Positions 3,553-54,282 of a stretch of 64,000 nucleotides of DNA are shown here, piece by piece. The stretch lies in IMG/VR virus record IMGVR_UViG_3300028920_000032, positions 94,330 through 158,329 of that record; one strand, written 5' to 3'. Under the pieces are notes generated by a model that was not told the origin of the DNA, searched no databases, and saw nothing but the letters and a program-made list of their open reading frames with translations. Made by a program: the position numbers and the translations under genes. Source of the stretch: a virus. Each line of letters begins with the position of its first letter. Positions within the stretch are counted from its first letter, which is position 1.

Positions 3553-3754
3553 TCTTCTTCTTCCAATCTTTTAGAGCTTTTTCATACTTTTCATCTGTCT
3601 TATAATCTTCTCTCTTTGGGCAATTACCCTTTCTTCTTCCTTTCCCGGCTAAACCTGGTCCCGGACCCGAACCATCGGGAACACCACGTGTACCTTTATA
3701 GCCTTCATTTTTTAATTCTTTGTTTAATTTATCTAAGGTGTCTTTAAGTTCCAT
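3545..3754 (-). CDS. Small basic hypothetical protein
   Basis: GGAGG RBS before MELKD; RGVPDGSGPGPG motif. Confidence 0.5.
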   Translation of the reverse strand: MELKDTLDKLNKELKNEGYKGTRGVPDGSGPGPGLAGKGRRKGNCPKREDYKTDEKYEKALKDWKKKNV

Positions 3755-4247
3755 TGTTTCCTCCAACTTTTTTACCAATTCTATTTATTGTTATGTTGTT
3801 CAAGTGATCGCATTCATGTTGAAAAACTTGAGCAAACAAACCATCTAATTCCTGCTTTACTCTTTTAACATTATCGCTAGAGTCTATTTCATCCCAGCTT
3901 GCTATAATTTTTTTATGCCTGGTAACAAGATATGTATCTTTACCATAAGTTAAACAACCTTCTTCAACTTGATATATTTCTTTTCCTTTGAATTTATATT
4001 CAGCATTAATAAAGACACACCAATTACCCATATTAACTTGACCTTTAACTTTAGTATCTGGTCGAAATGCCACAAAAAACTTTTTTCTGATACCAACTTG
4101 AATAGCAGCCAAACCAATACCATTTTTACGACTACATAGTGATATCATTTGTTTAAGGATTTTACTTTGTAAAAGTTTAAGAATGTCTTTACGCGTCAAC
4201 TCAGCACAAGTAACATTCTCAACATACTGTGGTTTTTCTAAAGTCAT
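3744..4247 (-). CDS. def: Peptide deformylase
   Basis: GIGLAAIQVG, EGCL, QHECDHL motifs; start moved to the RBS-supported MTLEK. Confidence 0.93.
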   Translation of the reverse strand: MTLEKPQYVENVTCAELTRKDILKLLQSKILKQMISLCSRKNGIGLAAIQVGIRKKFFVAFRPDTKVKGQVNMGNWCVFINAEYKFKGKEIYQVEEGCLTYGKDTYLVTRHKKIIASWDEIDSSDNVKRVKQELDGLFAQVFQHECDHLNNITINRIGKKVGGNNGT

Positions 4248-4278
4248 ATTTTCTCCTCTTAAGAATATATGCGACACA

Positions 4279-4307
4279 GGAAGGGGAGCAGCTTAAGCTC
4301 CCCTTCC
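4279..4307 (-). terminator. GC-rich hairpin, probable terminator
   Basis: GGAAGGGGAGC...GCTCCCCTTCC 11-bp inverted repeat downstream of 4336..4770. Confidence 0.55.
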
Positions 4308-4335
4308 ATAATAATATTAATACAATTAATATTTC

Positions 4336-4770
4336 TTATTTTTTAGCTTTTAGCATCTTTATGTTCTGTGCTGTAAATCCTTTTTTGTACTTTGCATTTC
4401 CAGCGATCTCAATTGCTAAATTGACAATGTCGAGAAAATTTCCACTAGGATTATCAATGATCTTATATCCCACTCCAGCTTCAGAAATCATTTCTTCACC
4501 AAATAATTCTTCACCAGTTTCTCCTTTAGCGCCTAACTCAGCTTCAGTAAAAAATGCTGTTGACCAACTTCCTTTTTTCTCACCATTTTTGTCATGCTCA
4601 AGAATAACCATGTCATAACCACTTGGTTGAAATGCCCAAATATAATTGATGTTAGCAGCTTTAAGAGCAACTTTAACTTTTGCATCAATTTTATCTCCTT
4701 CTTTTCCACCTTCAAAAAGGAGTTTTCCGCCGCTTCGATCTAGCTCTTCTAAAAAGTTTTTAACTTTCAT
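4336..4770 (-). CDS. Hypothetical protein, possible virion internal protein
   Basis: ORF with RBS; N-terminus MKVKNFLEE resembles T4-type capsid-targeting sequences. Confidence 0.55.
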   Translation of the reverse strand: MKVKNFLEELDRSGGKLLFEGGKEGDKIDAKVKVALKAANINYIWAFQPSGYDMVILEHDKNGEKKGSWSTAFFTEAELGAKGETGEELFGEEMISEAGVGYKIIDNPSGNFLDIVNLAIEIAGNAKYKKGFTAQNIKMLKAKK

Positions 4771-4785
4771 TTGTTTCCTCCATTA

Positions 4786-39747: not shown

Positions 39748-39814
39748 TAGCCGGATTTGAACCCCCGACGCCTAGCTTGTAGGGCTAGCGCTCTTCGCAC
39801 TGAGCTATGCGGCT
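39748..39814 (-). pseudogene. tRNA-Val(TAC) pseudogene, ~6-nt deletion at the T-stem/acceptor junction
   Basis: AGCCGCA..GCTC/GAGC..CTAGC-CCTACAA-GCTAG..GGGGGTTCAAATCC then GGCTA. Confidence 0.7.
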
Positions 39815-40042
39815 TCAATCAAACATAATAGCAGCAGTGTCTGAATCATCATCTTGCTCGTCTACTACAACATTACTCTGTTGTTTATTATATGCTGTTA
39901 TGCCATTTATTTTATTTTGCATTATCTGCAATAAAAGTTTTGCAGTATGAAAGCTCATATCATTAGTCAACATAGGATATGTATTTTCAACTTTATCTAA
40001 AAAGTGTAATACATCGGCTATATCTTGTACATTAATAACCAT
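39815..40042 (-). CDS. Hypothetical protein
   Basis: AAGGAG RBS before MVINVQ; ends AAIMFD, echoed by AAIMFGD in 41538..41753. Confidence 0.55.
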   Translation of the reverse strand: MVINVQDIADVLHFLDKVENTYPMLTNDMSFHTAKLLLQIMQNKINGITAYNKQQSNVVVDEQDDDSDTAAIMFD

Positions 40043-40117
40043 AATAGTACTCCTTTTAATTAGCTTTCGTAAAAACATATTCTTGTTCTGAGAAAATAAT
40101 ATAATAGCTATAATTTT

Positions 40118-40192
40118 TGCCGCCGAGTGGATTCGAACCACCCCCATCTTGGTTCTAAGCCAAGCGACTCCTTCCAGCTGGTCTACGACGGC
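40118..40192 (-). tRNA. tRNA-Leu(TAG), short variable arm
   Basis: GCCGTCG/CGGCGGC, CTTGG-CTTAGAA-CCAAG. Confidence 0.85.
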
Positions 40193-41535: not shown

Positions 41536-41992
41536 CTCTATCTCCCTTCTAGTTCGACATCGCCGAACATAATCGCCGCCTTTTTATCACCACTTTCTTT
41601 TTTTTCACTTTTTGTTTCAACATTCTTATTATGTTTAAGCCAACAATTGTGACATACAAATGTACTTCCTAAAAAATAACCTTTTGTAAATTCTTCTTTA
41701 GCTCCACATAATCCACAAGTTATAAAAGTTGGAATAGGATTAGAATTTGTCATATATTAACACCTCCTAGTAAATTATAAAAGCTTGTCGATTATATTAT
41801 CTAAGATCATCTAAATATTGCTTTCTTTGATGCCATGGTAAACTGAGATATTCTTTCTTAAACTTATAAGCTTCTTGCTTAACAACGTCTGGATTTTCTT
41901 CAATTACTTTAGCATATCGATTAGCAATATACTTTCTTATAACTTTTGAAGCTTTCTTATTCATATATTCTCCTTCCAATTATATGATCAAA

Positions 41993-42063
41993 TATGTCTT
42001 ACAGGATTCGAACCTGTGACTCCAGCCCAATCACCGGCGCTCTAACCGCTAAACCAAAGACAT
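41993..42063 (-). tRNA. tRNA-like gene with aberrant 6-nt anticodon loop (undetermined or pseudo)
   Basis: ATGTCTT/AAGACAT acceptor, intact T arm ACAGG-TTCGAAT-CCTGT, arm CCGGT-GATTGG-GCTGG. Confidence 0.6.
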
Positions 42064-42131
42064 AACCCAATCTAAATGCGCGACAAAGATTGTTTCGCCA
42101 TCAAGCAGTGCGCATTGCTTGTTATAGGCTA

Positions 42132-42202
42132 TGAGCAGTAGAGGAATCGAACCTCTCTAAACGGGTTAAGAGCCCGCTACAAAACCGATCTGTCAACTGC
42201 CC
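42132..42202 (-). tRNA. tRNA-Lys(CTT)
   Basis: GGGCAGT/ACTGCTC, loop CTCTTAA. Confidence 0.85.
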
Positions 42203-42207
42203 AGATA

Positions 42208-42278
42208 TGAGCGGTAGAGGAGTTGAACCTCTCTCAATGGGTTAAAAGCCCACCACAACGCCGATCTGTCAACCGCCC
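42208..42278 (-). tRNA. tRNA-Lys(TTT)
   Basis: GGGCGGT/ACCGCTC, loop CTTTTAA; tandem paralog of the previous gene. Confidence 0.85.
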
Positions 42279-42320
42279 TTATTTATCACTAAAAATATTG
42301 TTACAAATATATTATATTCT

Positions 42321-42599
42321 TCAATCGATAATATTTAGTATAGTAATTTTTGACCGTTTTTTACTCACAACAAAAGTTGAAAATCCCTCAGGAATTGATT
42401 TATTCCATCCATTTTTTCTAGCTTCAGAAACAGACTTAAAAACACCAGCTTGATGCATGAAATGTGCAATTAACATTCCATCTTTTAGATCAAAAAACAC
42501 TTGCTCTTGCTTTTTGTCTACAGGCCCCAAGAACAATTCAATATCTTTTTTAGAAGTATTCTTTTTAATAAAATCTACATCAATCGGCCCATTTTTCAT
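42321..42599 (-). CDS. S4-like RNA-binding protein (resembles the TyrRS C-terminal domain)
   Basis: M.QAGVFKSVSEARKNG...VSKKR. Confidence 0.6.
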   Translation of the reverse strand: MKNGPIDVDFIKKNTSKKDIELFLGPVDKKQEQVFFDLKDGMLIAHFMHQAGVFKSVSEARKNGWNKSIPEGFSTFVVSKKRSKITILNIID

Positions 42600-42613
42600 T
42601 TCCTCTATTCTCC

Positions 42614-42988
42614 TTAAAAAACAGAATTCTTAATATTATCTAAGAACTTATTTAATTTTTTTCTTAGGTCAGTAAGTGTTCCTGCACTAACAGAAAAGTT
42701 TGCAGAGTTTTCATTATCAATATCTAAATAAATAGTTAAATTGTAATTTAAACCTAGATTATTTTCCCAATTATAAAATCTTAATGAAAAGCTATTTAAG
42801 CCAGGAATTTCTACTAAAGTACCAATCAAAGAATCTGGATCTAAAACTTCTATAGAATTATTTTCTGGTGTTGGTGCGGTTTTATTACATGTATTATATC
42901 TTCCGATTCCAATTACTATTATTATAGCAATAAGAATAATAATTCCTACAATTACACTAGATCTCATCATAATACTATCTCCTTTCAA
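42614..42988 (-). CDS. Hypothetical membrane protein
   Basis: N-terminal TM helix. Confidence 0.55.
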   Translation of the reverse strand: MKGDSIMMRSSVIVGIIILIAIIIVIGIGRYNTCNKTAPTPENNSIEVLDPDSLIGTLVEIPGLNSFSLRFYNWENNLGLNYNLTIYLDIDNENSANFSVSAGTLTDLRKKLNKFLDNIKNSVF

Positions 42989-42992
42989 ATAG

Positions 42993-43064
42993 ACCCGCCG
43001 ACAGGATTCGAACCTGCATTAAGTGGTTTAGAAGACCACTGCCTATCCCTTAGACTACGACGGG
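42993..43064 (-). tRNA. tRNA-Arg(TCT)
   Basis: CCCGTCG/CGGCGGG, GTGGT-CTTCTAA-ACCAC. Confidence 0.88.
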
Positions 43065-43070
43065 AGGTTT

Positions 43071-43496
43071 CTAAATACTTAACTTTTTTGTATTGTCAAA
43101 TATTATAATAAATGGCTCATCTTTAATCACATAACGAGAAGTACTATCTTCATAAAGAAATTCAATAGATAACTTATCACCATTCTTTAATCCACCTATT
43201 GCCCACATAAAAATTGGATACATGTCTTCTGGCTCTATTTGTTCTTGTGGCGGAATTACTTCAACATGATGATATTGTAATAATATTTTTTCTGAATTGT
43301 TTTTTGATAAATAAATAAAAGCATTTTGAATATTTGGGTCTGCAACTCTGAAAGTTATTATTAATGTATCTTCATTAAAAACATTTTGACCATACCAATA
43401 AAGAACTGGATGGTCATTTGATTCTTTTTTATCTGGTACAACACTAACACAAGAAAAACAAAAAAGAATTAATAAAAAGAAAGCTATTTTTTTCAT
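43071..43496 (-). CDS. Putative lipoprotein
   Basis: Signal peptide ending CFSC. Confidence 0.6.
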   Translation of the reverse strand: MKKIAFFLLILFCFSCVSVVPDKKESNDHPVLYWYGQNVFNEDTLIITFRVADPNIQNAFIYLSKNNSEKILLQYHHVEVIPPQEQIEPEDMYPIFMWAIGGLKNGDKLSIEFLYEDSTSRYVIKDEPFIIIFDNTKKLSI

Positions 43497-43544
43497 ATTA
43501 TCTCCTTAAGATTTGAAACTCTTCTATTAAGTTAGTTCAAATAT

Positions 43545-43626
43545 TACCGCCGGAGGGACTTGAACCCTCAATCTCGTATGAGCGACAGAGTTTAAATCTG
43601 TTGTGTATACATTCCACCACGACGGC
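43545..43626 (-). tRNA. tRNA-Leu(TAA), long variable arm
   Basis: GCCGTCG/CGGCGGT, ACAGA-TTTAAAC-TCTGT. Confidence 0.85.
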
Positions 43627-43631
43627 ATGAA

Positions 43632-43880
43632 TTAATTTTGTGAATTTTCATATGCATGAATTGGACAGTCCATATCTGTTTTTCCAAGCTTGAAAAAAGT
43701 TTTCATAATACAAAAACGGCATACTGTAATTTCACCTTCATCATTAACTGCTTGCATCATTGCTATTCCTTTTTGTTTGTCACCACATTGACTACATTCG
43801 CAATCACCATGATTATAAAAAAACATAATTTTTGTATTATCATCTTTTCCATTCAAAATAATATTTGGACAATCACACAT
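43632..43880 (-). CDS. Cys-rich hypothetical protein
   Basis: CxC, CxxC motifs. Confidence 0.55.
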   Translation of the reverse strand: MCDCPNIILNGKDDNTKIMFFYNHGDCECSQCGDKQKGIAMMQAVNDEGEITVCRFCIMKTFFKLGKTDMDCPIHAYENSQN

Positions 43881-43893
43881 AACATTTCCTTTC

Positions 43894-44017
43894 TGGAGTA
43901 GGGGAGAGTTGAACTCCCGTCTTCTATCAAAGCAACCTTTTAAGGTACAAGGATTTTCGGATCTAGTGCATTTACGTCATCCTTAGTCTTATCAAGAATC
44001 GAATCCTGAACTACCCC
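43894..44017 (-). ncRNA. ssrA: Miniature tmRNA (124 nt)
   Basis: 5' GGGGTAGTTCAGGATTCGA, 3' GACGGGAGTTCAACTCTCCCCTACTCCA; G3:U70 Ala identity; no D-stem; internal TAAAT-GCA resume context with ORF ALDPKILVP*. Confidence 0.8.
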
Positions 44018-44018
44018 A

Positions 44019-44240
44019 TTAAAATTCTATAGAATCTATAAACAATAAAGCAAATTCAAAACCTGCAACTTGTTTTTTGTCAGACAAAGTTGTTTTTATT
44101 ACTTCAAGATTTTTCTTCAAATTTTCTTTGTCAACATAAATATCATCTTTACGCTTAATAAGATTAAATTTTAAAGATTGTATAATAGCATTAAGCTGAT
44201 CAACATCTTTAATAACTATACTGCTAAGATTTATTTCCAT
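44019..44240 (-). CDS. Hypothetical protein
   Basis: ORF with RBS. Confidence 0.5.
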   Translation of the reverse strand: MEINLSSIVIKDVDQLNAIIQSLKFNLIKRKDDIYVDKENLKKNLEVIKTTLSDKKQVAGFEFALLFIDSIEF

Positions 44241-44577
44241 ATTACTTATCCCTTTCTTTATATTTTTCTTTCTTCAAATAACCAAGAAAAATCTATAGAG
44301 CTATCATATCCTGTAGATAAAGATAATATAAGCAATGAAATTAGACAAGATCCAACTCCAACACCGAATACAGAATATATAGCTACTATAATTGGCGTAG
44401 AAATATGTGTGAAAGTGTGCGCTACAGCCGTAATAATATAACAGTGACTGATAATATTAATAACACAAATGCAACGCATGTTTTCATTTCATTATCATTT
44501 TTTGGTCTTCTCATAATATTTTATCCTTTCATAACAAATATGTCATTTATTTGCCAATTTATAGAACAATAAAAATA

Positions 44578-44648
44578 TGGAGGTCCCGGTGATCGAAACC
44601 GGTCCATCGGATCTTCAATCCACTGCGCTACCATTACGCTAAACCTCC
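44578..44648 (-). tRNA. tRNA-Phe(GAA)
   Basis: GGAGGTT/GACCTCC, loop TTGAAGA; weak upper anticodon stem. Confidence 0.75.
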
Positions 44649-44653
44649 ATAAA

Positions 44654-44729
44654 AATCTAAACAAGTTATATGAAGAGGATTCTTTTAGATTAACAGTCTA
44701 CGATAACCTCTATCAATTCAGTTTAGATT
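44654..44729 (-). ncRNA. Y RNA candidate 3, with Asn-like anticodon stem-loop
   Basis: AATCTAAAC/GTTTAGATT stem, TGAAT..GAGGTTATCG, TAGA-CTGTTAA-TCTA, AACTTG. Confidence 0.7.
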
Positions 44730-44730
44730 A

Positions 44731-44803
44731 AGTTCGGAGTGAGATTTGAACTCACGATAATAGGGTTGCAACCTACCGCCTTAAACCACTTGGCTATCCG
44801 AAC
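44731..44803 (-). tRNA. tRNA-Cys(GCA)
   Basis: GTTCGGA/TCCGAAC, loop TTGCAAC, U73. Confidence 0.88.
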
Positions 44804-44884
44804 ATAAAGCAGCTTATCTTCATAGTGTCAGTCTATGTTAATAAGCCACTCGCAGTAAAGTATCTGACATATACAATACTACTC

Positions 44885-44955
44885 TAGCCCTAAACGGATT
44901 CGAACCGATGTGACCTAGCTGAAAACCAGGCAGCCTGCCTTTAGCTGATAGGGCC
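44885..44955 (-). tRNA. tRNA-Glu(TTC)
   Basis: GGCCCTA/TAGGGCT, loop TTTTCAG; paralog of 29847..29917. Confidence 0.85.
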
Positions 44956-45689
44956 ATCAAATCACCAAATTTCTAAACCTTCACCACCAGTATCATCTTC
45001 GATATAAAATATATTACCTGATGAAAATTTAATTTTTATTGAATAAAAATCATCGATATTTATTGAATTTATAGTTTTTCCAACTTCATTAGAGAGTGCT
45101 TTATCATCTTCATTATAAATACCAACTACATTACCACCTGCAGGTGCAATATTATATTTTATCTCATTTATAGTAAGATATAAAATACCACTTTTTAAAT
45201 AACTAACTTTATCTAAAACAGAACCAACAGAATTCTTCAAATTCTCTCTTAGTATGTCTATTTCTTTTATTTCACTGTTCTCTTTATGTTTTAAAAAAAT
45301 ATGCACACTGCAATAGAAGAAGTTATACCCATTACTAAGTAAGCAAAGAAATAGATTGGAATAAATTTCCAATGACTCAATTGCAAACTACCTAAATACA
45401 TTAGCATTGAGAAAAAGAAAAGTATTGAAGGTGCTAGAATAAAATGTTTTCTTTGGATCATTCTAATTCTCCAATCTTTGTTATTGCCCATGCTGTTTTC
45501 CAGTTATTGCCAAGAAAAAGAAATATATCATTTCCTAAAGTAAAAGTTACCCAACCATTGCCCAAGTAGTTTATATTCTTTGCATTAAGTGGTAATAAAT
45601 AACTTTTTTCAGATTGACATGATAAAAACAAAACAATAATTACAACTAATAAAATAATTATTTTCTTCATATTATCTCCTTTCAAAATA

Positions 45690-45828
45690 AAGTAAGCAAG
45701 TTAGCGAATAAAGAAAATTTAAACTCTACCAACTGAGCTACCACCAAGCTTTGCTTGATGAGCAGGACTCGAACCTGCGACCTTTTGTTTTTAAGACAAA
45801 CGATAACCTTTATTCAATCAGCTTACTT
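45690..45828 (-). ncRNA. yrlA: YrlA-type Y RNA (circularly permuted tRNA-mimic domain)
   Basis: AAGTAAGC/GCTTACTT stem, TGATT..AGGTTATCG, then TTTGT-CTTAAAA-ACAAA, T arm GCAGG-TTCGAGT-CCTGC, closed acceptor CATCAAGC/GCTTGGTG, D arm TAGCTCAGTTGGTAGAG, AACTTG. Confidence 0.88.
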
Positions 45829-45830
45829 AG

Positions 45831-45903
45831 TGGAGCTGCGGAGGTTCGAACTCCGTACCTCCTGCTTGCAAAGCAGGCGCTCTCCCAATTGAGCTACAGC
45901 CCC
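45831..45903 (-). tRNA. tRNA-Ala(TGC)
   Basis: GGGGCTG/CAGCTCC with G3:U70, loop TTTGCAA. Confidence 0.92.
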
Positions 45904-45908
45904 ATGAT

Positions 45909-45996
45909 TGGGCCGAGTAGGACTCGAACCTACGATGTTTGCACTTAGGCGCCGGGTTTACAGCCCGGGGCGTTCGCCGCTACGCTATACCGACCC
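45909..45996 (-). tRNA. tRNA-Tyr(GTA)
   Basis: CCGGG-CTGTAAA-CCCGG, long variable arm. Confidence 0.88.
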
Positions 45997-46034
45997 TTAT
46001 TAAAATAATAATATTTTGTCGAAACTATTAAAGA

Positions 46035-46107
46035 CGGGAGCACCAGGACTCGAACCCGGAAATTCTGGTCTGGAGCCAAACGTGTTTCCAATTAATACCA
46101 TACTCCC
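46035..46107 (-). tRNA. tRNA-Trp(CCA)
   Basis: GGGAGTA/TGCTCCC, loop CTCCAGA, G73. Confidence 0.82.
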
Positions 46108-46111
46108 AAAG

Positions 46112-46185
46112 GGTGACCGACCAGATTTGAACTGGCGTAAATGGATTCACAGTCCATCTTCTGAAACCCCTCGAATACGGCCACC
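46112..46185 (-). tRNA. tRNA-His(GTG)
   Basis: G-1:C73, ATGGA-CTGTGAA-TCCAT. Confidence 0.88.
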
Positions 46186-46194
46186 ATGTTACTT

Positions 46195-46425
46195 CTAGTT
46201 TTCTTTTATAACCCTTTTCTTTTTTCGCTTTTCTCTTTTTCTACTCTTCTTACTTTTTGGTATAACAATAGTTTCATTCTTAGGTATTTTCTTGAGTGTA
46301 AATGTTTTCCATTCCACTGGTGTAATTAAAATTATACCATTATCAAACTTAAACGTAAGAGTCTTTTCATTTTGATCAACTTCAATGTCTTGAAGTTTAT
46401 GTTCTATAAAATCACCTAAATTCAT
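46195..46425 (-). CDS. Hypothetical basic protein
   Basis: ORF between tRNAs. Confidence 0.5.
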   Translation of the reverse strand: MNLGDFIEHKLQDIEVDQNEKTLTFKFDNGIILITPVEWKTFTLKKIPKNETIVIPKSKKSRKREKRKKKRVIKEN

Positions 46426-46427
46426 AG

Positions 46428-46502
46428 CTCCGGAAGTAGGATTCGAACCTACGACACTCTGCTTAACAGGCAGCCACTCTGACCAGACTGAGTTACTCCG
46501 GA
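46428..46502 (-). tRNA. tRNA-Asn(GTT)
   Basis: TCCGGAG/TTCCGGA, loop CTGTTAA, G73. Confidence 0.9.
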
Positions 46503-46575
46503 ATGTAATTAAAAATCTAATTTTGCTGATTTCTTGGATTTGTTGTCATTACCATATTATAAACACCATAAAAAT

Positions 46576-46649
46576 TCAGGCATCCCAGATTCGAACTGGA
46601 GATCTCGAGTTCCCAAAACTCGCGGAGTGACCAACTCTCCCAATGCCTG
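46576..46649 (-). tRNA. tRNA-Pro(TGG)
   Basis: CAGGCAT/ATGCCTG, CGAGT-TTTGGGA-ACTCG. Confidence 0.88.
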
Positions 46650-47158
46650 TTCTACTCTTCACTCTCTTTAATCTCTTTAATTACTACCTTTCTGAAATAA
46701 AAAGTTAGCTATTAAAATCGAAATAATAAATACTACCATTTTTATAAATATGCTTACTTCTTTTGTTCTAAGTTCAGAATATGGTTTCCAGAATACCCAG
46801 ACGGCTTCAGTATATATTGAAGATTTACCAAATGATAATACAAATTCTATTATAGTAATCCATAATGCACAAGTTATATAACCAGCAAGTACAAGTGTTA
46901 AAAAAATTATTATTTTTGATGATGTACTCATATCTCTTTTAAGCTACTAAACATCTTTTTAAACTTTCTTTTAGATTTAATTTCTTTCACAATAATTTCA
47001 CCTATTTGGATGCTTTTATAAAAACAGTAGAATATTGTTAATATAATTGGACTGCAACCAGTTAATATAAAACTACTACTCTTTGCAAGAATACAAAATA
47101 AATAAATTATAATCTGTAACAATATAACAAACAATAACATATTATATTCCTTTCTAAT

Positions 47159-47197
47159 TGGGCGCCCTGGGGTTTGAACCCAGCAAACACTACTTTA
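47159..47197 (-). pseudogene. Orphan 3' half of an interrupted tRNA
   Basis: TAAAGTAGTGTTTG-CTGGG-TTCAAAC-CCCAG-GGCGCCC-A. Confidence 0.7.
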
Positions 47198-47200
47198 ATA

Positions 47201-47287
47201 TAGGGGAGGTGGGATTTGAACCCACGAAATCCTTTCGGCCTTCCATTTATAAGATGGATGCTACTAACCAGACTGAGCTACTCCCCT
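47201..47287 (-). tRNA. tRNA-Ile(TAT) with long variable arm
   Basis: AGGGGAG/CTCCCCT, TCCAT-CTTATAA-ATGGA, variable arm containing CC-GAAA-GG. Confidence 0.8.
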
Positions 47288-47758
47288 ATGTTTTCTGCCT
47301 TTAAATCTATATTTCTCTGTTTGTTGATGACAATTAAGACATAATGCCTCGAGGTTATCTCTATCGTTATTTTTTTTATTATTGTCTTTATGATGTATCT
47401 CTAAATATATAGGCTTACCAAGCCATTCAGAATTGCCACAATTGTTGCATTTACCTTTTTGTTCTTCTTTAACCTTTCTTTTTATTTGACTATGAGACAT
47501 AAGTTCATATTTATTTGAATCATAGATCATTTGTCTTGCTCTTTTTTGTGATTCATTGCCTTTTCTCCCTGCTGAAGCGGGCCAGCCTCCGGTATAAGTA
47601 GTCCCACTAAATGGTTTCCCTTTCAACTTTTTACTTACTTTTTCATTTATTTCTTTACGCTTAGCCTTAGTACTAAACCCTCTTGCACATTTAGATGAAC
47701 AAAATCTACCTGACCCATAAGAGCCATCATGCTCCTTATTACAGTTTTCACATTTCAT
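47264..47758 (-). CDS. HNH homing endonuclease with N-terminal Zn finger
   Basis: CENC...GSYGSGRFCS.KC; CNNC...LEIHHKD...NN...NL..LC.NCH. Confidence 0.9.
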   Translation of the reverse strand: MKCENCNKEHDGSYGSGRFCSSKCARGFSTKAKRKEINEKVSKKLKGKPFSGTTYTGGWPASAGRKGNESQKRARQMIYDSNKYELMSHSQIKRKVKEEQKGKCNNCGNSEWLGKPIYLEIHHKDNNKKNNDRDNLEALCLNCHQQTEKYRFKGRKHRGVAQSG

Positions 47759-47819
47759 ATTCGAACCTCCAAGTGTATATAATATTATCTTACACCTATA
47801 AGTTCGAATCTTTCATTTT

Positions 47820-47850
47820 GAAGCTGCTTCACCAATTTGCATAGACGCCT
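47820..47850 (-). pseudogene. Orphan 5' half of the interrupted tRNA
   Basis: AGGCGTC-TA-TGCAAATTGGTGAAGCA-G-CTTC; acceptor strand pairs with GGCGCCC at 47160-47166. Confidence 0.65.
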
Positions 47851-47854
47851 AAAA

Positions 47855-48087
47855 AATTATTATTCCAGTAGCCAGGATTCTGTTTTATCCTATCATCTAT
47901 CTCAACATTAAATGCTGGTCTTGCGACTGCTGCCTACCCGATCATTATAGAACTGCTCACCTTCTAGATCTTATTTGGCATTGCACCCTCAGTGGTTCAA
48001 ACGAATAAAAATCCTCCCACTTTAAAAGCAGTGGTGTCCTGAGCTTCCTCTATACTTAAAGTACAGCGATAGGTCAGAATAATAATT
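47855..48087 (-). ncRNA. rnpB: Minimal type-A RNase P RNA (catalytic domain only)
   Basis: P1 AATTATTATTC/GAATAATAATT, P2 CCTATCG/TGATAGG, P3 CTGTAC/GTATAG, GAGGAAGCTCAGGA with ACAGAATCCTGGCT giving P4 with bulged U, P5 CACC/GGTG, P15 GCC/GGC with L15 AAATAA/GGGTA, P16 GATC/GATC, P17 TAGAA/TTCTA, AGATAGATGA. Confidence 0.88.
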
Positions 48088-48389
48088 AAAGTGCAGGTAA
48101 TATGTAATTCAGGCTTCATTGCTATAGCTCCACCCAAAATTACTACCTGCACTTGGTAATCTAGCGGGGTAATTGCTAGATTTATAAATAAAGGTTTTTG
48201 TAAAACCAATACATTCTAAATTATGCAATATTGTTTCCTTCTCTTAGCCAACTATCTTCTTGCATATCGCCTAGAGAATCTCACTTCTCTAACCGTATTC
48301 TAGCTTTATCTGTCAAAAATCAAACTTCTTCCAATATTCTTCATCTGCCATGTTTTTCATTATATATAACAAACGAAGCTTTTTCCCAT

Positions 48390-48415
48390 AAAAAAAGCCC
48401 TCTGTATAGAGGGCT
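48390..48415 (-). terminator. Intrinsic terminator upstream of the rnpB/tRNA block
   Basis: AGCCCTCT-ATAC-AGAGGGCT followed by a T-run. Confidence 0.8.
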
Positions 48416-48592
48416 ATTATAATCATAAATACTGGTACCTCTACAACATCAATCTGCCTGTTCTTGCTTCTACACCATTAATTTTATATAAATTAAATGA
48501 TGGGGCTATGGGATTATGTTTACAGAGTGACCATCTAGTCATTTCTATTATTCTCCTTATTCTCATTTATCTTTAGTATATATGCAAAAAAT

Positions 48593-48979
48593 CTAGAATA
48601 TTCCCAAAATTATCTCATTTTCTTCACCGCGAAGAAGTCTTTTAACACTTTCTTTTTTAGTAATAGCTATATCTTCTTCTGTATCTGGAAAATACTTTAC
48701 TATTGTGTCTAATCCATAGTCAGTAATTTTCCAATAACCAGATATTTTATCAGTGCCGACGACTGTATTATAAACTTCAATTGGAGGACTACTATAATGT
48801 TTAAGTAGCTTCATTGATCTAAGCTCATATAAAGTACCTTTAGGAATTTTCAAATATTTAGTTAAAGATCTAGTTGGTACCAACAAATTATCATGACTAT
48901 AATAAATTTTTCTTAGATAAAAATATTTTTTACAGATCTTCATTTTCAGCTGTTGGCTCTGGACATGGTGTAAATTCAA
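48593..48979 (-). CDS. Hypothetical protein
   Basis: ORF; true start probably MKICKK. Confidence 0.45.
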   Translation of the reverse strand: MNLHHVQSQQLKMKICKKYFYLRKIYYSHDNLLVPTRSLTKYLKIPKGTLYELRSMKLLKHYSSPPIEVYNTVVGTDKISGYWKITDYGLDTIVKYFPDTEEDIAITKKESVKRLLRGEENEIILGIF

Positions 48980-49262
48980 CAGTTAGCTCTTCAGCATTTA
49001 AATTGATAATAATATCTTTATTATTATATTTTTCTAACACATTACTATTTTTTGCTGGCTTAAGTTCTGTTATCTTTATTCTGTCTTTGAGAATATTAAG
49101 TTGATCTCCATTTTCTAAAATAATAGTAATACTACCATTCCAATCAGCTTCTGTGATTACTTCATTTGATCTTACTGCAAATGTTATAAATATCACAGAA
49201 ATCAAAAAAACAACTGCTAAAATAATGCCTCCAACTATAATGTTTCTAAAAAAATTACTCAT
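48930..49262 (-). CDS. Hypothetical membrane protein
   Basis: N-terminal TM helix. Confidence 0.55.
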   Translation of the reverse strand: MSNFFRNIIVGGIILAVVFLISVIFITFAVRSNEVITEADWNGSITIILENGDQLNILKDRIKITELKPAKNSNVLEKYNNKDIIINLNAEELTVEFTPCPEPTAENEDL

Positions 49263-50014
49263 ATTGTTTCCTTTCTTATTGAATTAATATATTCAATTAG
49301 TATTTGAGAATCTATTCTTCCTGAGTCTATTGAGTGAAACAAATGTTCTTTTAAAACCTTTTCACTCATTACTGGTCTTGCATACATAATCTTCTTCTCA
49401 CTATGACAGAATAAATGAAAATCATCAAATACTAATGGTATATAATCTTTACACCATATTAAAAGTCTTAACATAAGTTCTCTAATTTCCCAATGAGCAT
49501 AATGGTCACATCTCATGGTAAAAATATGACGCCATTCTCGTATATTGGCTTTTACTACAATTTCATTGGCCAGGCCAATTGGCAAAAATTGTCTGGCGTC
49601 TTCTGGCCTCCAACCTTTTTTACGTAAATCACGATATACTAAATCTAGTCTATCACCATGCATAGTCATTTCTTCATATGTCTCAATATCATTTTGATGT
49701 GGTGGATATACTATATCAAAACCCTTTTCATCAACATATCTAGTACTTTCTTGCGAAAAACTAGCTAAGCGATGTCTAACCATTTCATGTGTAAATCCTC
49801 TGGACACATTGCTAAATTTTACTTTTAGATCGGCCATTTCTAACATTGCATGATGTCCTCTTTCTAAAAGTACTTTTACTAATTTTTCATCACTCTTTTT
49901 ATTTTGATTTTTAAAAGATTGGTAACAAGTCCTTGCTGCAGAAGCAATATCGTGTATTATATTTTTTGGTTTAGATAGTACTTTAAATTTACCTTTATTT
50001 TTTAATAGTTTCAC
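49259..50014 (-). CDS. thyX: FAD-dependent thymidylate synthase
   Basis: THEMVRHRLASFSQESTRYV, EDAR, N.REWRH, AHWEIR. Confidence 0.95.
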   Translation of the reverse strand: MKLLKNKGKFKVLSKPKNIIHDIASAARTCYQSFKNQNKKSDEKLVKVLLERGHHAMLEMADLKVKFSNVSRGFTHEMVRHRLASFSQESTRYVDEKGFDIVYPPHQNDIETYEEMTMHGDRLDLVYRDLRKKGWRPEDARQFLPIGLANEIVVKANIREWRHIFTMRCDHYAHWEIRELMLRLLIWCKDYIPLVFDDFHLFCHSEKKIMYARPVMSEKVLKEHLFHSIDSGRIDSQILIEYINSIRKETI

Positions 50015-50249
50015 TATGAGCTCCTTTTGAATTACTTAGCCTTATTTGCTCTGAAAATTTCAATTCTCTTATATGGCACTATTTCACATGGTATAGCATG
50101 AAATTTTTCACATTTATAATCGCGGAAATCATCTTCAGCAAGAAGTGTGTCTTCTCTTTTCTTTTTTTTACAATGGTTATAATATTTACCATCTTTTTTT
50201 ATAATAGTTCGTTGTTTGCAAACTTTACATTCTTCCATATTAACTCCTT

Positions 50250-50525
50250 CTAATATCTAAGATTCTTTGCGAACCATATAGTAAATATGTCATCTATAAT
50301 TAATCCAGGACCACTTATTTTAACTACATTATTATTCATATTAAAAAATTTTAGAGAAATAACTTTTCTGTCACATGTTAAATCTAATGGGACACTCTGA
50401 GGTATTAAATTACGTACTGATCCATAGCGTTCTTTTATATCTTCTATTATTTTAAATATTTGTTCAGAGTTTTCAATTTCATAATATTTTATATTTAGTG
50501 ATGGTCTTTGTTGATTAATATCCAT
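50250..50525 (-). CDS. Hypothetical protein (true start MDINQQ; track start lies inside a tRNA)
   Basis: GAGGAG RBS. Confidence 0.55.
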   Translation of the reverse strand: MDINQQRPSLNIKYYEIENSEQIFKIIEDIKERYGSVRNLIPQSVPLDLTCDRKVISLKFFNMNNNVVKISGPGLIIDDIFTIWFAKNLRY

Positions 50526-50558
50526 ATACTCTCCTCTATAAGATAAGCTTGGTCCGAT

Positions 50559-50630
50559 TACGCCTGTGAAGATTTGAACTCCAGATCCCTGCTCCAAAGG
50601 CAAGTGTGTTACCAATTACACTACAGGCGT
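50559..50630 (-). tRNA. tRNA-Gln(TTG)
   Basis: ACGCCTG/CAGGCGT, loop CTTTGGA. Confidence 0.82.
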
Positions 50631-50635
50631 ATATA

Positions 50636-50706
50636 TTGGCTTGAGAGGATTTGAACCTCTACTATCATGATTCAGAATCATGTGTCTTACATTAAACGAC
50701 AAGCCA
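50636..50706 (-). tRNA. tRNA-Gln(CTG)
   Basis: TGGCTTG/CAAGCCA, CATGA-TTCTGAA-TCATG. Confidence 0.82.
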
Positions 50707-51094
50707 TTATTTGTTTATGTAATTTTAAGAGTTTTTCTTCTCTCTTTCTTTTGTCAAGTTGAATAGATTCATAAAAACTTCTTAAAAGGTTATAAATTAT
50801 TAAAACATCATTCTCATGCTCAGACAAATAACCAACTATATTTTTATAACTGCCATCATCTTTTAATTTGATTACAGCGATCTTTTTATATTTTTTGTAT
50901 ATTCTAATATACAAATCACTATAATGAATAAGATTTACTGTTACTCCATGGTCTTTTCTTTTTATTTTATAATCATTTAGTTTTATGCATTCATTAGAAT
51001 TTTTATGAAATTCATATTTTTTTACTAAATTACAAATTGCAATAAAACATGCTCTTATAATATTTGGAATAAAAACTTCTCTAGTAATTTCCAT
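50687..51094 (-). CDS. Hypothetical protein; stop codon lies inside tRNA-Gln
   Basis: GGAGG RBS. Confidence 0.55.
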   Translation of the reverse strand: MEITREVFIPNIIRACFIAICNLVKKYEFHKNSNECIKLNDYKIKRKDHGVTVNLIHYSDLYIRIYKKYKKIAVIKLKDDGSYKNIVGYLSEHENDVLIIYNLLRSFYESIQLDKRKREEKLLKLHKQIMACRLM

Positions 51095-51095
51095 T

Positions 51096-51731
51096 TTACC
51101 TCCAAAATATTTCTGGATATACTCTTACACTTTCTAATTCAGCATCAACTTTAATTCCAGAAAAACTACCAGTTGCCACATACTCAATAAAAGTGTCTAT
51201 TCCATATTCTAACTCAGTATATATACTTAAATATATAGACCAATACCTATAGACAGTATAAGACTGTCCAGAAATAAATATGTCATCTAATAATTCAAGT
51301 GTAGTATTATTTACCACTCTTACAATTCTTGATAGCTGTTGTGTGTCCTCATTATATACACAGTATGGATCAAAATCATCTAAAAATAAAAGAAATGATG
51401 CACTGTTGTCTGTTAAACAATTTGAACTAGTTGCTGTTGCAGTACCGGTACTAATTATGATTTCATCTTTATGTGTTTTAAGCCATACTACTTTACCACT
51501 TGGATCAGCAAGCGTCTCTTCATAATAATAGGAGCAATCTTCATCAATAAATGTAACTCCTGGCAATGAACCAGAAATAATTTGATTATCTCCAATAACA
51601 CTTACCTTATAAATAATTTTCTTTGAAATAACGTCCTGAATTTCAAGATCATCCTTAAATTCATATCCTTGATCAAGAATCCAACAGCTAGTTAATAATA
51701 GTAAAATTATGACAACAATAATATATCTCAT
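51096..51731 (-). CDS. Putative lipoprotein
   Basis: Signal peptide ending LTSC. Confidence 0.6.
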   Translation of the reverse strand: MRYIIVVIILLLLTSCWILDQGYEFKDDLEIQDVISKKIIYKVSVIGDNQIISGSLPGVTFIDEDCSYYYEETLADPSGKVVWLKTHKDEIIISTGTATATSSNCLTDNSASFLLFLDDFDPYCVYNEDTQQLSRIVRVVNNTTLELLDDIFISGQSYTVYRYWSIYLSIYTELEYGIDTFIEYVATGSFSGIKVDAELESVRVYPEIFWR

Positions 51732-51743
51732 AATCTTCCTTTC

Positions 51744-51816
51744 CGACCTGTAGGGGAATCGAACCCCTATGACTAGATCGACAGTCTAGCATAATAAACC
51801 ATTATATGAACAGGCC
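51744..51816 (-). tRNA. tRNA-Asp(GTC)
   Basis: GGCCTGT/ACAGGTC, CTAGA-CTGTCGA-TCTAG, G73. Confidence 0.88.
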
Positions 51817-52329
51817 TCATAAATATATGTCTATATCACCTTTTTTAATTTTTTCTATTTTCGTTTTGCAATATTCTATCTCATCTTTAGCATAATCAAT
51901 TTTACGTTCCTTTTCTAATATTTGTTCATTTAAATAATTGATCATGACCTCTTTGTTTCTTTTGGCTCCCTTTTTTATATATTTATATATACAACTTTTA
52001 TGACAGGAGTGTTGATCATGTAATGTTATAATATCTTCTTCACGATAATATCTTTCTGGTTCACTTTCTTTTGGTTTTTCTATTTCGTTTAAATTGCAAT
52101 AATATTCTATCTCAATATCTTTGCTAATGTCTTTAAGTTCAAAACTTCGACCTCTTGTATTATTTACACCCCAATAAGTATCAATTAGATACATTTTGCC
52201 ATTTATTTTTTTAGCAACTATCATACCTTCTATACAATGTCGCAAACTTCCTTCATAAGTTTTATTTCTCTTTATGTAGTCTGTAGTCCAATTAAAATAA
52301 TAGACATCACCTTCTTTAATTTTCTTCAT
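51817..52329 (-). CDS. Hypothetical phage protein
   Basis: ORF with DTYW motif and C-terminal coiled coil. Confidence 0.55.
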   Translation of the reverse strand: MKKIKEGDVYYFNWTTDYIKRNKTYEGSLRHCIEGMIVAKKINGKMYLIDTYWGVNNTRGRSFELKDISKDIEIEYYCNLNEIEKPKESEPERYYREEDIITLHDQHSCHKSCIYKYIKKGAKRNKEVMINYLNEQILEKERKIDYAKDEIEYCKTKIEKIKKGDIDIYL

Positions 52330-52345
52330 ATTGTCACCTTTCTAG

Positions 52346-52493
52346 TTAGTGGTTTTCCTGCGCAGGGAAGGTATCCAACCTTCATCAGGAGCCACCCTGT
52401 TTCAAACGCATACCATCATCCGTGGCTAATCAGATTACTCTTTGCTATCACTTACTCATCCCAGAATAAGCGCCTGCGCAGGAAAACCACTAA
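52346..52493. ncRNA. Unassigned 148-nt structured element closed by a 21-bp perfect inverted repeat
   Basis: TTAGTGGTTTTCCTGCGCAGG/CCTGCGCAGGAAAACCACTAA enclosing three hairpins. Confidence 0.6.
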
Positions 52494-52502
52494 TTTTATA
52501 AA

Positions 52503-52576
52503 AGCCGGCGAGAGGAATCGAACCTCCGTGTAGACGATTTACAGGACCGTTGCAACCCAACTTTTGCTACGCCGGC
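52503..52576 (-). tRNA. tRNA-Thr(TGT), with C33
   Basis: GCCGGCG/CGCCGGC, loop CCTGTAA. Confidence 0.78.
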
Positions 52577-52799: not shown

Positions 52800-52951
52800 A
52801 ACAACTTTTTTACATTTCCCACTTTTTTAAATCAATTTTTTGTATCCTGTTGAGTTTTTTGTGTTGTAATAAGTATCGTTTTCTTTTTCATTGTATTTAT
52901 CTTTGTCATTAGTTTAAAATATGCGAATAAAAAGACAAATTTATTTTTAGC

Positions 52952-53155
52952 TTAACATTCATCTCCTTCACCTACTTGATTAAAACTATCTTTCTTTGGT
53001 GGTTGTTTACCTTTAGGTTGTGGCTTTATTTCACCATTAAAAGTAGATTTCTCTGCCATTTTATTTCCGCGTATTTGATCAGCATTACCTTTAAGATCTT
53101 GATCATTTTTCCCTTTTCCTGATGATACATCGCTCATATATTTCTTTTCAGCCAT
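52952..53155 (-). CDS. Small hydrophilic protein
   Basis: AAGGAGG RBS. Confidence 0.55.
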   Translation of the reverse strand: MAEKKYMSDVSSGKGKNDQDLKGNADQIRGNKMAEKSTFNGEIKPQPKGKQPPKKDSFNQVGEGDEC

Positions 53156-53172
53156 TACTTGCCTCCTTAGTT

Positions 53173-53466
53173 TTAATTATCTTTAATATTAACAGAATTA
53201 ATTCTATCTCTTAACATTTGATTTTTAAATAAATCACTAAAAAATAATTTCTTAAGTTCATTAGTAGTTTTAATCTTTTGTAAACTTTTATTCTGCTGGA
53301 ACTTTTTAAGTTGTTGTTTGGTAATTATATATTCTATATCAGTTTCTAAGCCCCAAAATATACGCTTACCTAAAGAATCGTTGCCAATATAAACTATTTT
53401 TTGTATATAACCTTTATAGTGTGGTAGATCACTACTATCATATTTCCAAAAATCTGCAAATTTCAT
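53173..53466 (-). CDS. Hypothetical protein
   Basis: ORF, ATGA overlap. Confidence 0.5.
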   Translation of the reverse strand: MKFADFWKYDSSDLPHYKGYIQKIVYIGNDSLGKRIFWGLETDIEYIITKQQLKKFQQNKSLQKIKTTNELKKLFFSDLFKNQMLRDRINSVNIKDN

Positions 53467-53906
53467 TTAAATAAACTAACTCTTCTATTAAAATATGATT
53501 TAATATCAATATCATATTTGGTTGATAGCCAATTCCAATCTATTTTAAGAAATTCTTTTGAAAACTTCTCAAGATTTTTATGTCCTTCAATTTCATTTGG
53601 TTCATAGCTTTCAAAAAAATTTATTTCGATTAATTGAATATTATTTTTAATTTTAACTTGTCCTTCTAAAAAATTTGTATTTAATTCTTTTGTTGACAAG
53701 CCTAACTCTTCTTTAGCATAAAAATGTAATAATTGATTATTAAATGCATATATAACTTTCTTTTTATTGTCAGCTATAATTCTTGGGAAGCCTCCTATTT
53801 CTCTCCATTCTTTAGAAGTAGGATTTTTAAATATTTCAAAATACTTACCAAAAAGATTTTTTCGACCACCTACCCATGTCTCATTTAGAACATCAATTAA
53901 TTTCAT
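53463..53906 (-). CDS. Hypothetical protein, possible virion internal protein
   Basis: MKLIDVLNE N-terminus, AAGATAA upstream. Confidence 0.55.
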   Translation of the reverse strand: MKLIDVLNETWVGGRKNLFGKYFEIFKNPTSKEWREIGGFPRIIADNKKKVIYAFNNQLLHFYAKEELGLSTKELNTNFLEGQVKIKNNIQLIEINFFESYEPNEIEGHKNLEKFSKEFLKIDWNWLSTKYDIDIKSYFNRRVSLFK

Positions 53907-53910
53907 ATAT

Positions 53911-54282
53911 TTATCTTGTTAAATCGTTTGCCAATTTAGTAAATGGTATATATATAGCATTTGGTAAAATGCTCAACATGTTCTGCGCACCATAAAAATT
54001 CATAGTATGTAATATAACTTGTGCATCAGCTCTTTCTTTAGCTAAATATTTTGCAAATTGATAACCAGTATTTTCTTCATTTGAAGGAACATATATTCTA
54101 TGATCTAAATCATGATCGAGAAAATAAAAATCAAAAGGCCCTAATGTTTTATCAATATATACTGCATCATTTACTACATCTACAAGAGTTAAAACACAAT
54201 TGATTAGAATCTTTTTAAAAATTTTTATTCTTGCACTACTATCTTCAAGAATTAATATTTTTGACCCTTTTTCTATAGTCAT
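53911..54282 (-). CDS. Cyclic-phosphate-processing receiver-like domain protein
   Basis: ILED, LDHDL, TGY, HTMN..G motifs. Confidence 0.75.
   Translation of the reverse strand: MTIEKGSKILILEDSSARIKIFKKILINCVLTLVDVVNDAVYIDKTLGPFDFYFLDHDLDHRIYVPSNEENTGYQFAKYLAKERADAQVILHTMNFYGAQNMLSILPNAIYIPFTKLANDLTR

Follow-up and report, generated by a model that had tools for sequence, protein, structure and literature searches.

A probable translation-support island with miniaturised RNase P RNA and tmRNA candidates among the tRNA genes of a large phage

The window, its tRNA genes and a reduced RNase P RNA

The stretch of DNA analysed here (the window, 64,000 nucleotides) comprises bases 94330-158329, the last 64 kb, of the linear IMG/VR virus record IMGVR_UViG_3300028920_000032 (158,329 bp; the contig, or G000 where genomes are compared). 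It carries dispersed transfer RNA (tRNA) genes together with a reduced RNase P RNA, a reduced transfer-messenger RNA (tmRNA) and several protein genes linked to translation and RNA handling. The initial annotation had read these as an integrated suite for tRNA maturation, ribosome rescue and RNA surveillance; eleven of the twelve items that it listed were confirmed, and one, an S4 domain, was not found. The contig has a completeness of ~70% (CheckV), from which a whole genome of ~225 kb is estimated; GC is ~30%, and the minus strand holds nearly all genes of the window. An anaerobic-type ribonucleotide reductase, NrdD, is encoded on the contig and adjoined by a radical-SAM protein that is probably its activase (NrdG), a combination which suggests an anaerobic host. 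Megablast of 10 kb of the window against GenBank phages gave no DNA-level match, and relatives identified through DnaE, all at <=30% identity, were not used further. There is one close relative, a 77.6-kb fragment of 39% completeness (G001), in which the region is syntenic. The RNA genes that form the centre of the argument are these:

17896..52576, minus strand: 31 dispersed tRNA genes (ARAGORN, Rfam, inspection of 3' flanks)
47853..48085, minus strand: mini RNase P RNA, 233 nt (Rfam RF00010, 68.9 bits, E 8e-19)
43891..44017, minus strand: mini-tmRNA, 127 nt (Rfam RF00023, 44.8 bits, E 1.6e-14)

ARAGORN calls exactly the 31 tRNAs that had been annotated, all on the minus strand. The set spans 19 amino acids, with no tRNA-Val in the window, and some of the genes are separated by only 2-5 nt; a pair of tRNA-Lys genes occupies 42131-42278. 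Inspection of the 3' flanks found an encoded CCA in none of the 31, and the tmRNA likewise lacks one. The contig encodes a CCA-adding enzyme at positions 80224-81540, 13 kb upstream of the window, with a conserved counterpart in G001; CCA-less tRNAs combined with a phage CCA-adding enzyme support a tRNA-maturation route provided by the phage itself, and we consider this core of the island well supported. At Rfam gathering thresholds the tRNAs alone are reported, and reporting by E-value adds three RNAs (RNase P, tmRNA and YrlA).

Within the array, ARAGORN assigns an unreadable two-base anticodon (tt) to one tRNA (41992-42064, minus strand), and the 5' part of an 89-nt tRNA-Ile(tat) (47200-47288, minus strand) overlaps the end of an HNH homing-endonuclease ORF (open reading frame) at 47264-47758. 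G001 carries 42 tRNAs, one of them of amber-suppressor type (anticodon CTA; L059:15239-15311), and the window's 31 show none of this type.

The mini RNase P RNA aligns with RF00010 over its full length (model positions 1-367), although it has only 233 nt to the model's 367. What is gone is the specificity domain (P7-P14), where ~110 model positions are reduced to 18 nt forming a short hairpin. The type A catalytic core is present, with P1-P4, the bulged U in P4, the GAGGAA and ACAGAA strands and the CR-I and CR-V sequences, and a P15-like region with GGU is kept as well. G001 has a copy of 200 nt that is 77% identical. A pattern for the J18/2-P4 3' block retrieved 80 IMG/VR loci, and a search of 78 of their records with RF00010 found reduced RNase P RNAs in 12, three of these being complete genomes with terminal repeats. 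In all, 14 IMG/VR records carry such RNAs, 156-277 nt long, with 13 distinct sequences among them. P4 is paired at 7/7 positions and retains the bulged U in all 12 distinct sequences in which both P4 strands are readable. This pairing persists while its bases change: the 4-bp part occurs in five variants (CAGG/CCUG, CCAG/CUGG, CGGG/CCCG, CCGG/CCGG and CGCG/CGCG), as does the 3-bp part. The mini RNase P of the initial annotation is thus borne out by a match to the full model and by a P4 helix conserved with compensatory variants, and this structural conservation argues that the RNA is likely to be functional.

All carriers of a mini RNase P RNA have tRNA genes (4-45 matches), and in four of them (G009, G023, G035 and G048) its gene lies 0-12 nt from the flanking tRNAs, so that the RNA would be freed by the very processing that it is predicted to perform. 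We compared 28 phage records, namely the 14 with a mini RNase P RNA and 14 chance matches of the pattern without an RNase P RNA. The protein partner RnpA was found neither in the contig nor in any of the 28 records, including the three complete mini-RNase-P genomes, which implies that either the host protein is borrowed or the RNA acts alone. A blastn search for distant relatives of the RNA among GenBank phages returned chance 26-nt matches only, and none of the papers searched was found to describe an RNase P RNA encoded by a phage.

The surroundings of the gene differ between records. The window has ~500 nt of non-coding DNA upstream of it (48086-48592, minus strand), in which a strong terminator hairpin with a T-run (48396-48415) closes the preceding operon; the RNase P promoter would be expected in the ~300 nt between. 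In G024, Pth2 stands directly beside the mini RNase P gene (3361-3666 and 3884-4149), a pairing unlike that of the window. In G009 (182325-182683), a YrlA-like match abuts the mini RNase P gene, and Ro60 lies ~4 kb away across the terminal repeat.

A pseudoknot-free tmRNA and the ribosome-linked proteins

The 127-nt mini-tmRNA contains a tRNA-like domain (TLD) with a 7-bp acceptor stem including G3:U70, a T-arm and a D-loop analogue, GGAUUCGA. All four pseudoknots (PK1-PK4) are absent, and the ~78 nt between the two halves of the TLD form two hairpins inside a P2-like helix. A candidate tag frame of nine codons runs GCA ... CCU UAA and would encode the tag ALDPKILVP; its stop codon falls in the loop of a hairpin. 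Scanning with a strict pattern brought up one further mini form in IMG/VR and several in metagenomes. A homologue, L227 (9831-9955), has 125 nt, scores 60.4 bits, above the Rfam threshold, and aligns without gaps at 66% identity; its 13-kb contig (32% GC) has tRNAs and ORFs around it. Its frame has the same nine-codon length, but starts with CCC after a UAG, and both frames end in Val-Pro. A third form, L222, has 125 nt and scores 56 bits, again above the Rfam threshold. Between the window RNA and L227 there are nine compensatory pair changes and no broken pairs, distributed over five helices (the acceptor stem, the P2-like helix, the tag-frame stem, the UAA-loop hairpin and the T-arm), and G3:U70 is invariant in three mini-tmRNAs. 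The annotation of a mini tmRNA therefore stands, on the RF00023 match and on a homologue with compensatory changes, and this pattern argues for an RNA that is likely to function.

ARAGORN does not call this tmRNA, and both it and the RNase P RNA score below the Rfam gathering scores. Standard annotation would thus skip both RNAs, as the initial annotation had anticipated.

Several further candidates were rejected. L225 and L228 are full-length tmRNAs that matched the pattern falsely, and the matches of 74-89 nt that the RF00023 model gives in other records correspond to ordinary tRNAs. At L224:6088-6207 (PPYE01046245.1, 100 kb) lies a further mini-tmRNA, of independent origin: an Escherichia-like tmRNA of ~138 nt from which the tag frame and pseudoknots 2-4 are deleted.

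Five protein genes bear on ribosomes or on messenger RNA (mRNA):

30480..30827, minus strand: stand-alone GGQ (RF-1 domain) protein, 115 aa (Pfam RF-1 64 bits, GGQ motif in the translation)
32087..32506, minus strand: Pth2 (Pfam PTH2 120 bits, cut-off 23; TIGR00283 109 bits, cut-off 82)
3744..4277, minus strand: peptide deformylase (Pfam Pep_deformylase 89 bits)
21866..22117, minus strand: ribosomal protein bS21 (six-frame Pfam match; Ribosomal_S21 59 bits, cut-off 27)
37173..37520, minus strand: YafQ/RelE-type mRNA interferase homologue (Pfam YafQ_toxin 58 bits)

The first four of these correspond to items of the initial annotation, and each was recovered. The GGQ protein finds its best matches in the GGQ domains of RF1, RF2 and C12orf65, and we regard it as a candidate ribosome-bound peptidyl-tRNA hydrolase. 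An assignment as ArfB was rejected, with 27 bits for NCBIfam ArfB (cut-off 100, residues 11-38 only), 22 bits for ArfB chains in the PDB, and a C-terminus that is mixed to acidic in place of a basic tail. Pth2 exceeds both curated cut-offs, is 58% identical in G001, and lies two genes from the GGQ gene in one tightly packed run; Atlas look-ups of two family-less genes flanking the GGQ and Pth2 genes gave nothing usable.

The deformylase keeps its three catalytic motifs (GIGLAAIQ, EGCLT and HECDH), with NCBIfam models below their cut-offs, and has a homologue of 40% identity in G001. Its gene is 13.6 kb away from the first tRNA, in a conserved block on the replication side. In the part of this block that adjoins it are genes for two DUF2201 'putative metallopeptidase' proteins (246-2698 and 6438-7310, minus strand), one with a VWA-like domain, and for an AAA_5 ATPase, which together resemble a MoxR/VWA-like module. 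The bS21 frame, syntenic in G001, has no ATG, GTG or TTG start; it opens with ATC ATT after a strong AAGGAGG and is missing from ORF lists because its start is ATC or ATT. This rare start may point to regulation at the level of initiation. The S4-like protein that had also been proposed did not hold up: a six-frame Pfam S4 search of the 158-kb contig was empty at E <= 0.1, yet all 14 control genomes gave a match, and none of the window proteins scanned against Pfam hit S4. In that Pfam scan, ORFs below ~90 aa were mostly covered by the six-frame search alone.

Does the mini-tmRNA rescue ribosomes, or might it interfere with rescue by the host? SmpB was not found in the 158-kb contig, and Hudson et al. 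(2014, PMC4131195) note that a phage tmRNA reduced to its TLD may titrate SmpB and thereby inhibit trans-translation, so that the two rescue routes foreseen initially are not secure. It is conceivable that the phage takes over translation instead. The phage would cut host mRNA with its own YafQ-type interferase and nucleases and would use the GGQ protein and Pth2 to clear the resulting stalled ribosomes for itself; the mini-tmRNA would blunt host trans-translation, either as a decoy that titrates host SmpB or by tagging without a degradation signal. Consistent with such a take-over, the YafQ homologue keeps the DAH, DW, TGTH and LF residues in an alignment to E. coli YafQ (4ML0), a 58-aa upstream ORF overlaps its start in the usual toxin-antitoxin layout (37173-37668, minus strand), and an SNase-domain gene follows (37898-38554). 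The failure to find a phage SmpB, the possible titration by TLD-only tmRNA and candidate tags that end in VP, not in the usual Ala-Ala, point the same way. However, the ORF-like stem and the hairpin with the stop in its loop are kept by compensatory changes, which would be needless for a pure SmpB decoy, and the YafQ gene may be a mere toxin-antitoxin cargo module. We hold this take-over to be very unlikely, and regard the ribosome-rescue layer of the island as plausible but ambiguous.

Ro60, phosphoesterases and the distribution of the parts

The remaining parts concern RNA surveillance and the handling of RNA ends:

12460..14067, minus strand: Ro60/Rsr-like protein, TROVE + vWA (Pfam vWA_Ro60 97 bits, TROVE 80 bits)
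45698..45806, minus strand: YrlA-like Y RNA candidate (Rfam RF02553, 34.9 bits, below the gathering score of 69)
14068..15043, minus strand: ORF-poor 976-nt stretch upstream of Ro60, with candidate Y-like RNAs and a terminator hairpin
20412..21371, minus strand: DHH/DHHA1 phosphoesterase of NrnA-like size (Pfam DHH 33 bits; DHHA1 21.6 bits, below cut-off)
24774..25325, minus strand: small calcineurin-like metallophosphoesterase (Pfam Metallophos 27 bits)
53911..54282, minus strand: cREC domain protein (Pfam cREC_REC 40 bits, cut-off 27)

The combination of Ro60 with Y RNAs had been proposed, and of this the protein is secure while the RNAs fare less well. NCBIfam Rsr matches the Ro60 protein end to end at 262 bits, below its equivalog cut-off of 900, and the G001 protein is 58% identical. 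The YrlA-like RNA lies directly downstream of tRNA-Ala, and the orthologous position in G001 is 72% identical, with the stem, and the T-arm and D-arm of the tRNA-like module, common to both. Sub-threshold YrlA matches also come from adjacent tRNAs and from control genomes and are therefore not very specific, so we rate the identity of this Y RNA as only probable. A second YrlA match (45879-45935) spans the junction of tRNA-Ala and tRNA-Tyr and was discarded as a tRNA artefact. The 976-nt stretch upstream of Ro60 has no Rfam match and shares only short repeated motifs with G001; its fold z-scores are -5.4 in the proximal part (14068-14342) and -1.9 and -2.1 elsewhere. The motif RGGTTAYC opens the YrlA-like RNA and has minus-strand sites at 14192, 21402, 44702 and 45802. 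The three other sites are intergenic (one lies upstream of Ro60, another downstream of the DHH gene, and the third separates tRNA-Cys from tRNA-Phe), a striking placement, with a total that is not above chance (6 found, 3.6 expected).

The DHH phosphoesterase, the metallophosphoesterase and the cyclic-phosphate-processing receiver-like domain were each recognised by Pfam as predicted, the last above its cut-off and with the acidic receiver-type residues present. The two enzymes are conserved in G001 (42% identity for the DHH protein, 39% for the metallophosphoesterase), with Pfam matches that are generic and near threshold; for the DHH protein there was no NCBIfam model and no sequence match in the PDB, and for the metallophosphoesterase no NCBIfam match. 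No RNA ligase or NAD-processing gene stands beside the cREC gene, whose neighbours are ORFs without a family match and an HNH gene. Among the partners sought in the 158-kb contig, only the CCA-adding enzyme was found; SmpB, RnpA, RtcB, Rnl1 and Rnl2 were not. The Rnl1 search was empty in the controls too, and a weak Rnl2-type match (PF09414) proved to be an ATP-dependent DNA ligase, the sole ligase found. The proposed handling of damaged RNA ends was therefore not borne out, and the RNA-end-repair layer of the suite is weak. The island also encodes a GGDEF-EAL protein (40183-41535, minus strand; 153 and 182 bits) that could manipulate c-di-GMP. It could be an equally good context for an NrnA-like DHH protein, which would then act in dinucleotide turnover and finish the breakdown of pGpG.

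Are these parts inherited together? Across the 28 records, nine features are almost confined to those bearing tRNAs, the six tRNA-free controls containing one CCA enzyme and nothing else, and only the contig itself (G000) holds all nine. Elsewhere the combinations vary:

G009 (complete): RNase P, tmRNA, TROVE, GGQ, cREC
G016 (complete): RNase P, tmRNA
G029 (complete): RNase P, canonical tmRNA, CCA enzyme, cREC
G024: RNase P, with Pth2 beside it
G061 (complete, 46 tRNA matches): TROVE, Pth2, CCA enzyme, cREC; no RNase P
G055: tmRNA, GGQ, CCA enzyme

The close relative G001 shares the RNase P RNA, Ro60, YrlA-like RNAs, Pth2, deformylase, bS21, the DHH and Metallophos proteins and the CCA enzyme; the GGQ protein, the cREC protein and the mini-tmRNA were not found in its 78 kb, a fragment representing 39% of a genome. 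The sole tight link is that of the mini RNase P with tRNA arrays. The toolkit gathers around tRNA arrays and is not one block inherited together, and in this respect the integration of the suite is not supported.

With varying combinations, one might ask whether there is any functional integration at all. The parts could be unrelated cargo in a plastic tRNA region, and some of the small RNAs could be decaying relics of captured host genes. Such an origin would agree with the varying combinations, with the homing HNH genes inside the island, with the RNase P and tmRNA scores below the Rfam thresholds, and with the neighbourhood: the parts are scattered over 50 kb of the minus strand amid roughly 100 ORFs, and the ORFs around them are mostly of no recognised or of unrelated function. 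Families of unrelated function in the region include ThyX, GGDEF-EAL, lipase, M23 and C39 peptidases, a DenV-like glycosylase, SNase, PD-(D/E)XK and HNH, and ten family-less island proteins gave nothing usable against PHROGs. Against decay, however, speak the compensatory changes in P4 and in five mini-tmRNA helices; against mere cargo, the intact catalytic motifs of the deformylase, the GGQ protein and Pth2, the near-exclusive occurrence of the features in tRNA-bearing phages, and the fit of CCA-less tRNAs with a phage CCA enzyme. A collection of unrelated cargo is in our judgement highly improbable.

At the opposite extreme stands a single co-evolved system that counters translation shut-off by anticodon nucleases or toxins, with replacement tRNAs matured by the phage, two routes for freeing ribosomes, recycling of peptidyl-tRNA and processing of damaged RNA ends. 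Phage tRNA arrays can offset host tRNA-cleaving defences, all parts lie on one strand within 50 kb, and the GGQ protein and Pth2 share one tightly packed run, each of which would suit such a system. It would be suited as well by the proposal that cREC and Pth2 are RNA-repair and ribosome-rescue parts in jumbo phages (PMC7824862). It is difficult to reconcile with the failure to find RtcB, Rnl1, Rnl2 or SmpB in 158 kb whose only ligase is an ATP-dependent DNA ligase, with parts that are not co-conserved across the 28 records, with the 78 kb of G001, in which no GGQ protein, cREC or mini-tmRNA was seen, with a cREC gene that has no ligase or NAD-processing neighbour, and with the generic functions of the DHH protein and the metallophosphoesterase. 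We therefore think it rather unlikely that the parts constitute one counter-defence system.

Similarly doubtful is a more specific, largely RNA-based and miniaturised maintenance system, in which the mini RNase P would mature the tRNAs and the mini-tmRNA would rescue ribosomes with a tag that does not signal degradation. The two RNAs would be expressed together with the GGQ protein and Pth2, and growth on hosts that shut translation off would require the whole set; as part of that same doubtful proposition, the mini RNase P would belong to a family specific to phage tRNA arrays.

A model of the island and its relation to known systems

What, then, is the island for? The parts are present, their motifs are intact and the structures of the RNAs are conserved, and the tRNA 5'-end, CCA-addition and ribosome-rescue logic that they suggest is coherent. 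We consider it probable that the window contains an accessory translation-support island of a large phage of a low-GC anaerobe, made of separately acquired parts that do not form a co-inherited system. We picture that the 31 CCA-less tRNA genes would be transcribed as multi-gene precursors, that a catalytic-domain-only RNase P ribozyme of the phage would cut the tRNA 5' ends, most likely with borrowed host RnpA, and that the phage CCA-adding enzyme would finish the 3' ends. Around this core there would be optional add-ons, namely a pseudoknot-free tmRNA dependent on host SmpB, the GGQ hydrolase, Pth2, the deformylase, bS21, Ro60 with its tRNA-like Y RNA, and generic phosphoesterases, and other tRNA-rich phages would carry these add-ons in other combinations. 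Together, the parts might keep phage protein synthesis going when the host's supply fails, be it through shut-off imposed by the phage or through host defence. Catalysis, partner proteins, timing and any role in counter-defence are inferred.

Several points weigh against this model. Both shrunken RNAs fall short of their gathering scores (68.9 against 100 bits for RF00010, 44.8 against 47 bits for RF00023). The 3' block of the RNase P RNAs was fixed by the search pattern, so that independent evidence comes only from the 5' strand, from the bases that pair in P4 and from the remainder of the RNA; as the pattern constrained neither the 5' strand nor the pairing bases, we take the P4 covariation to be real. 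In the co-occurrence comparison, the controls are a convenience sample, the set is small, no phylogenetic correction was applied and many records are fragments, which makes absences weak. A k-mer search of the intergenic DNA for a common promoter motif returned nothing beyond generic AT-rich and SD-like (Shine-Dalgarno-like) words, and a promoter scan did not exceed shuffled expectation, so that co-expression is unsupported. Finally, SmpB, RNA ligases or RnpA could lie in the ~30% of the genome outside the contig.

The island is the fullest such set among the 28 records compared, and it combines tRNA maturation, two candidate rescue routes and the recycling of peptidyl-tRNA with deformylation, a ribosomal protein and a Ro60/Y RNA particle. 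Because two of its central components are shrunken RNAs overlooked by routine annotation, the translational autonomy of phages is probably underestimated. Both offer testable minimal RNAs, a natural bacterial-type RNase P RNA without specificity domain and a class of tmRNAs of 125-127 nt. The co-occurrence data temper the claim, in that selection seems to act on interchangeable parts around tRNA arrays and not on one fixed machine.

How does the phage RNase P RNA compare with known forms? Bacterial type A RNase P RNA (RF00010) shares with it P1-P4, the bulged U and the core strands, and the phage RNA differs in having no specificity domain. The isolated C-domain of type A RNase P RNA is reported to be catalytic at reduced efficiency (PMC5839562), and the phage RNA is likewise reduced to the catalytic domain, as in such engineered forms. 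A natural counterpart exists in the type T RNA of Thermoproteaceae, which also lacks the S domain (PMC3579882). Unlike all of these, the phage RNA is encoded inside phage tRNA arrays, with no RnpA gene.

Comparable precedents exist for the rescue components. The TLD-only tmRNA of mycobacteriophage DS6A (PMC4131195) is likewise phage-encoded, with a tRNA-like domain and G3:U70 and without a phage SmpB. In contrast to that bare TLD, the window RNA is larger and keeps the P2-like helix, the stem of the nine-codon frame and the UAA-loop hairpin, which are conserved in L227. The GGQ protein resembles ArfB (YaeJ), ICT1 and C12orf65/MTRFR in its small size and in combining a GGQ domain with a C-terminal helical tail; it departs from ArfB in that this tail is not basic and in its higher scores against the GGQ domains of RF1, RF2 and C12orf65.

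Translation and RNA-repair toolkits in large phages are already known. RNA-repair and rescue sets of jumbo phages comprise tRNAs, ligases, a kinase, cRec, Pth2 and TROVE (Iyer et al., 2021, PMC7824862). These sets have the tRNA array, Pth2, TROVE/Ro60 with a tRNA-like partner, cRec and a calcineurin-like phosphoesterase in common with the window, and that paper interprets these shared parts as responses to attacks on translation. The sets centre, however, on RtcB, Rnl1, Rnl2 and polynucleotide kinase, whereas no RNA ligase was found in this 158 kb, and neither a ligase nor NAD/ADP-ribose-processing genes, to which cRec would be linked in such a system, were recognised beside cREC here. A text search of that paper found no mention of RNase P, tmRNA, deformylase or S21.

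The huge-phage sets described by Al-Shayeb et al. (2020, PMC7162821) draw on tRNAs, CCA enzyme, deformylase, S21, release factors and tmRNA/SmpB, and that paper states that the full complement occurs in no single phage. The tmRNAs of those phages were called by ARAGORN, some together with SmpB, whereas the window's 127-nt form is uncalled and SmpB was not found; a text search of the paper finds no RNase P RNA, and the window phage has one. Large tRNA sets, CCA enzyme, deformylase, bS21, release factors and tmRNA are common ground, and in the phages compared here, as in those sets, they come in varying combinations.

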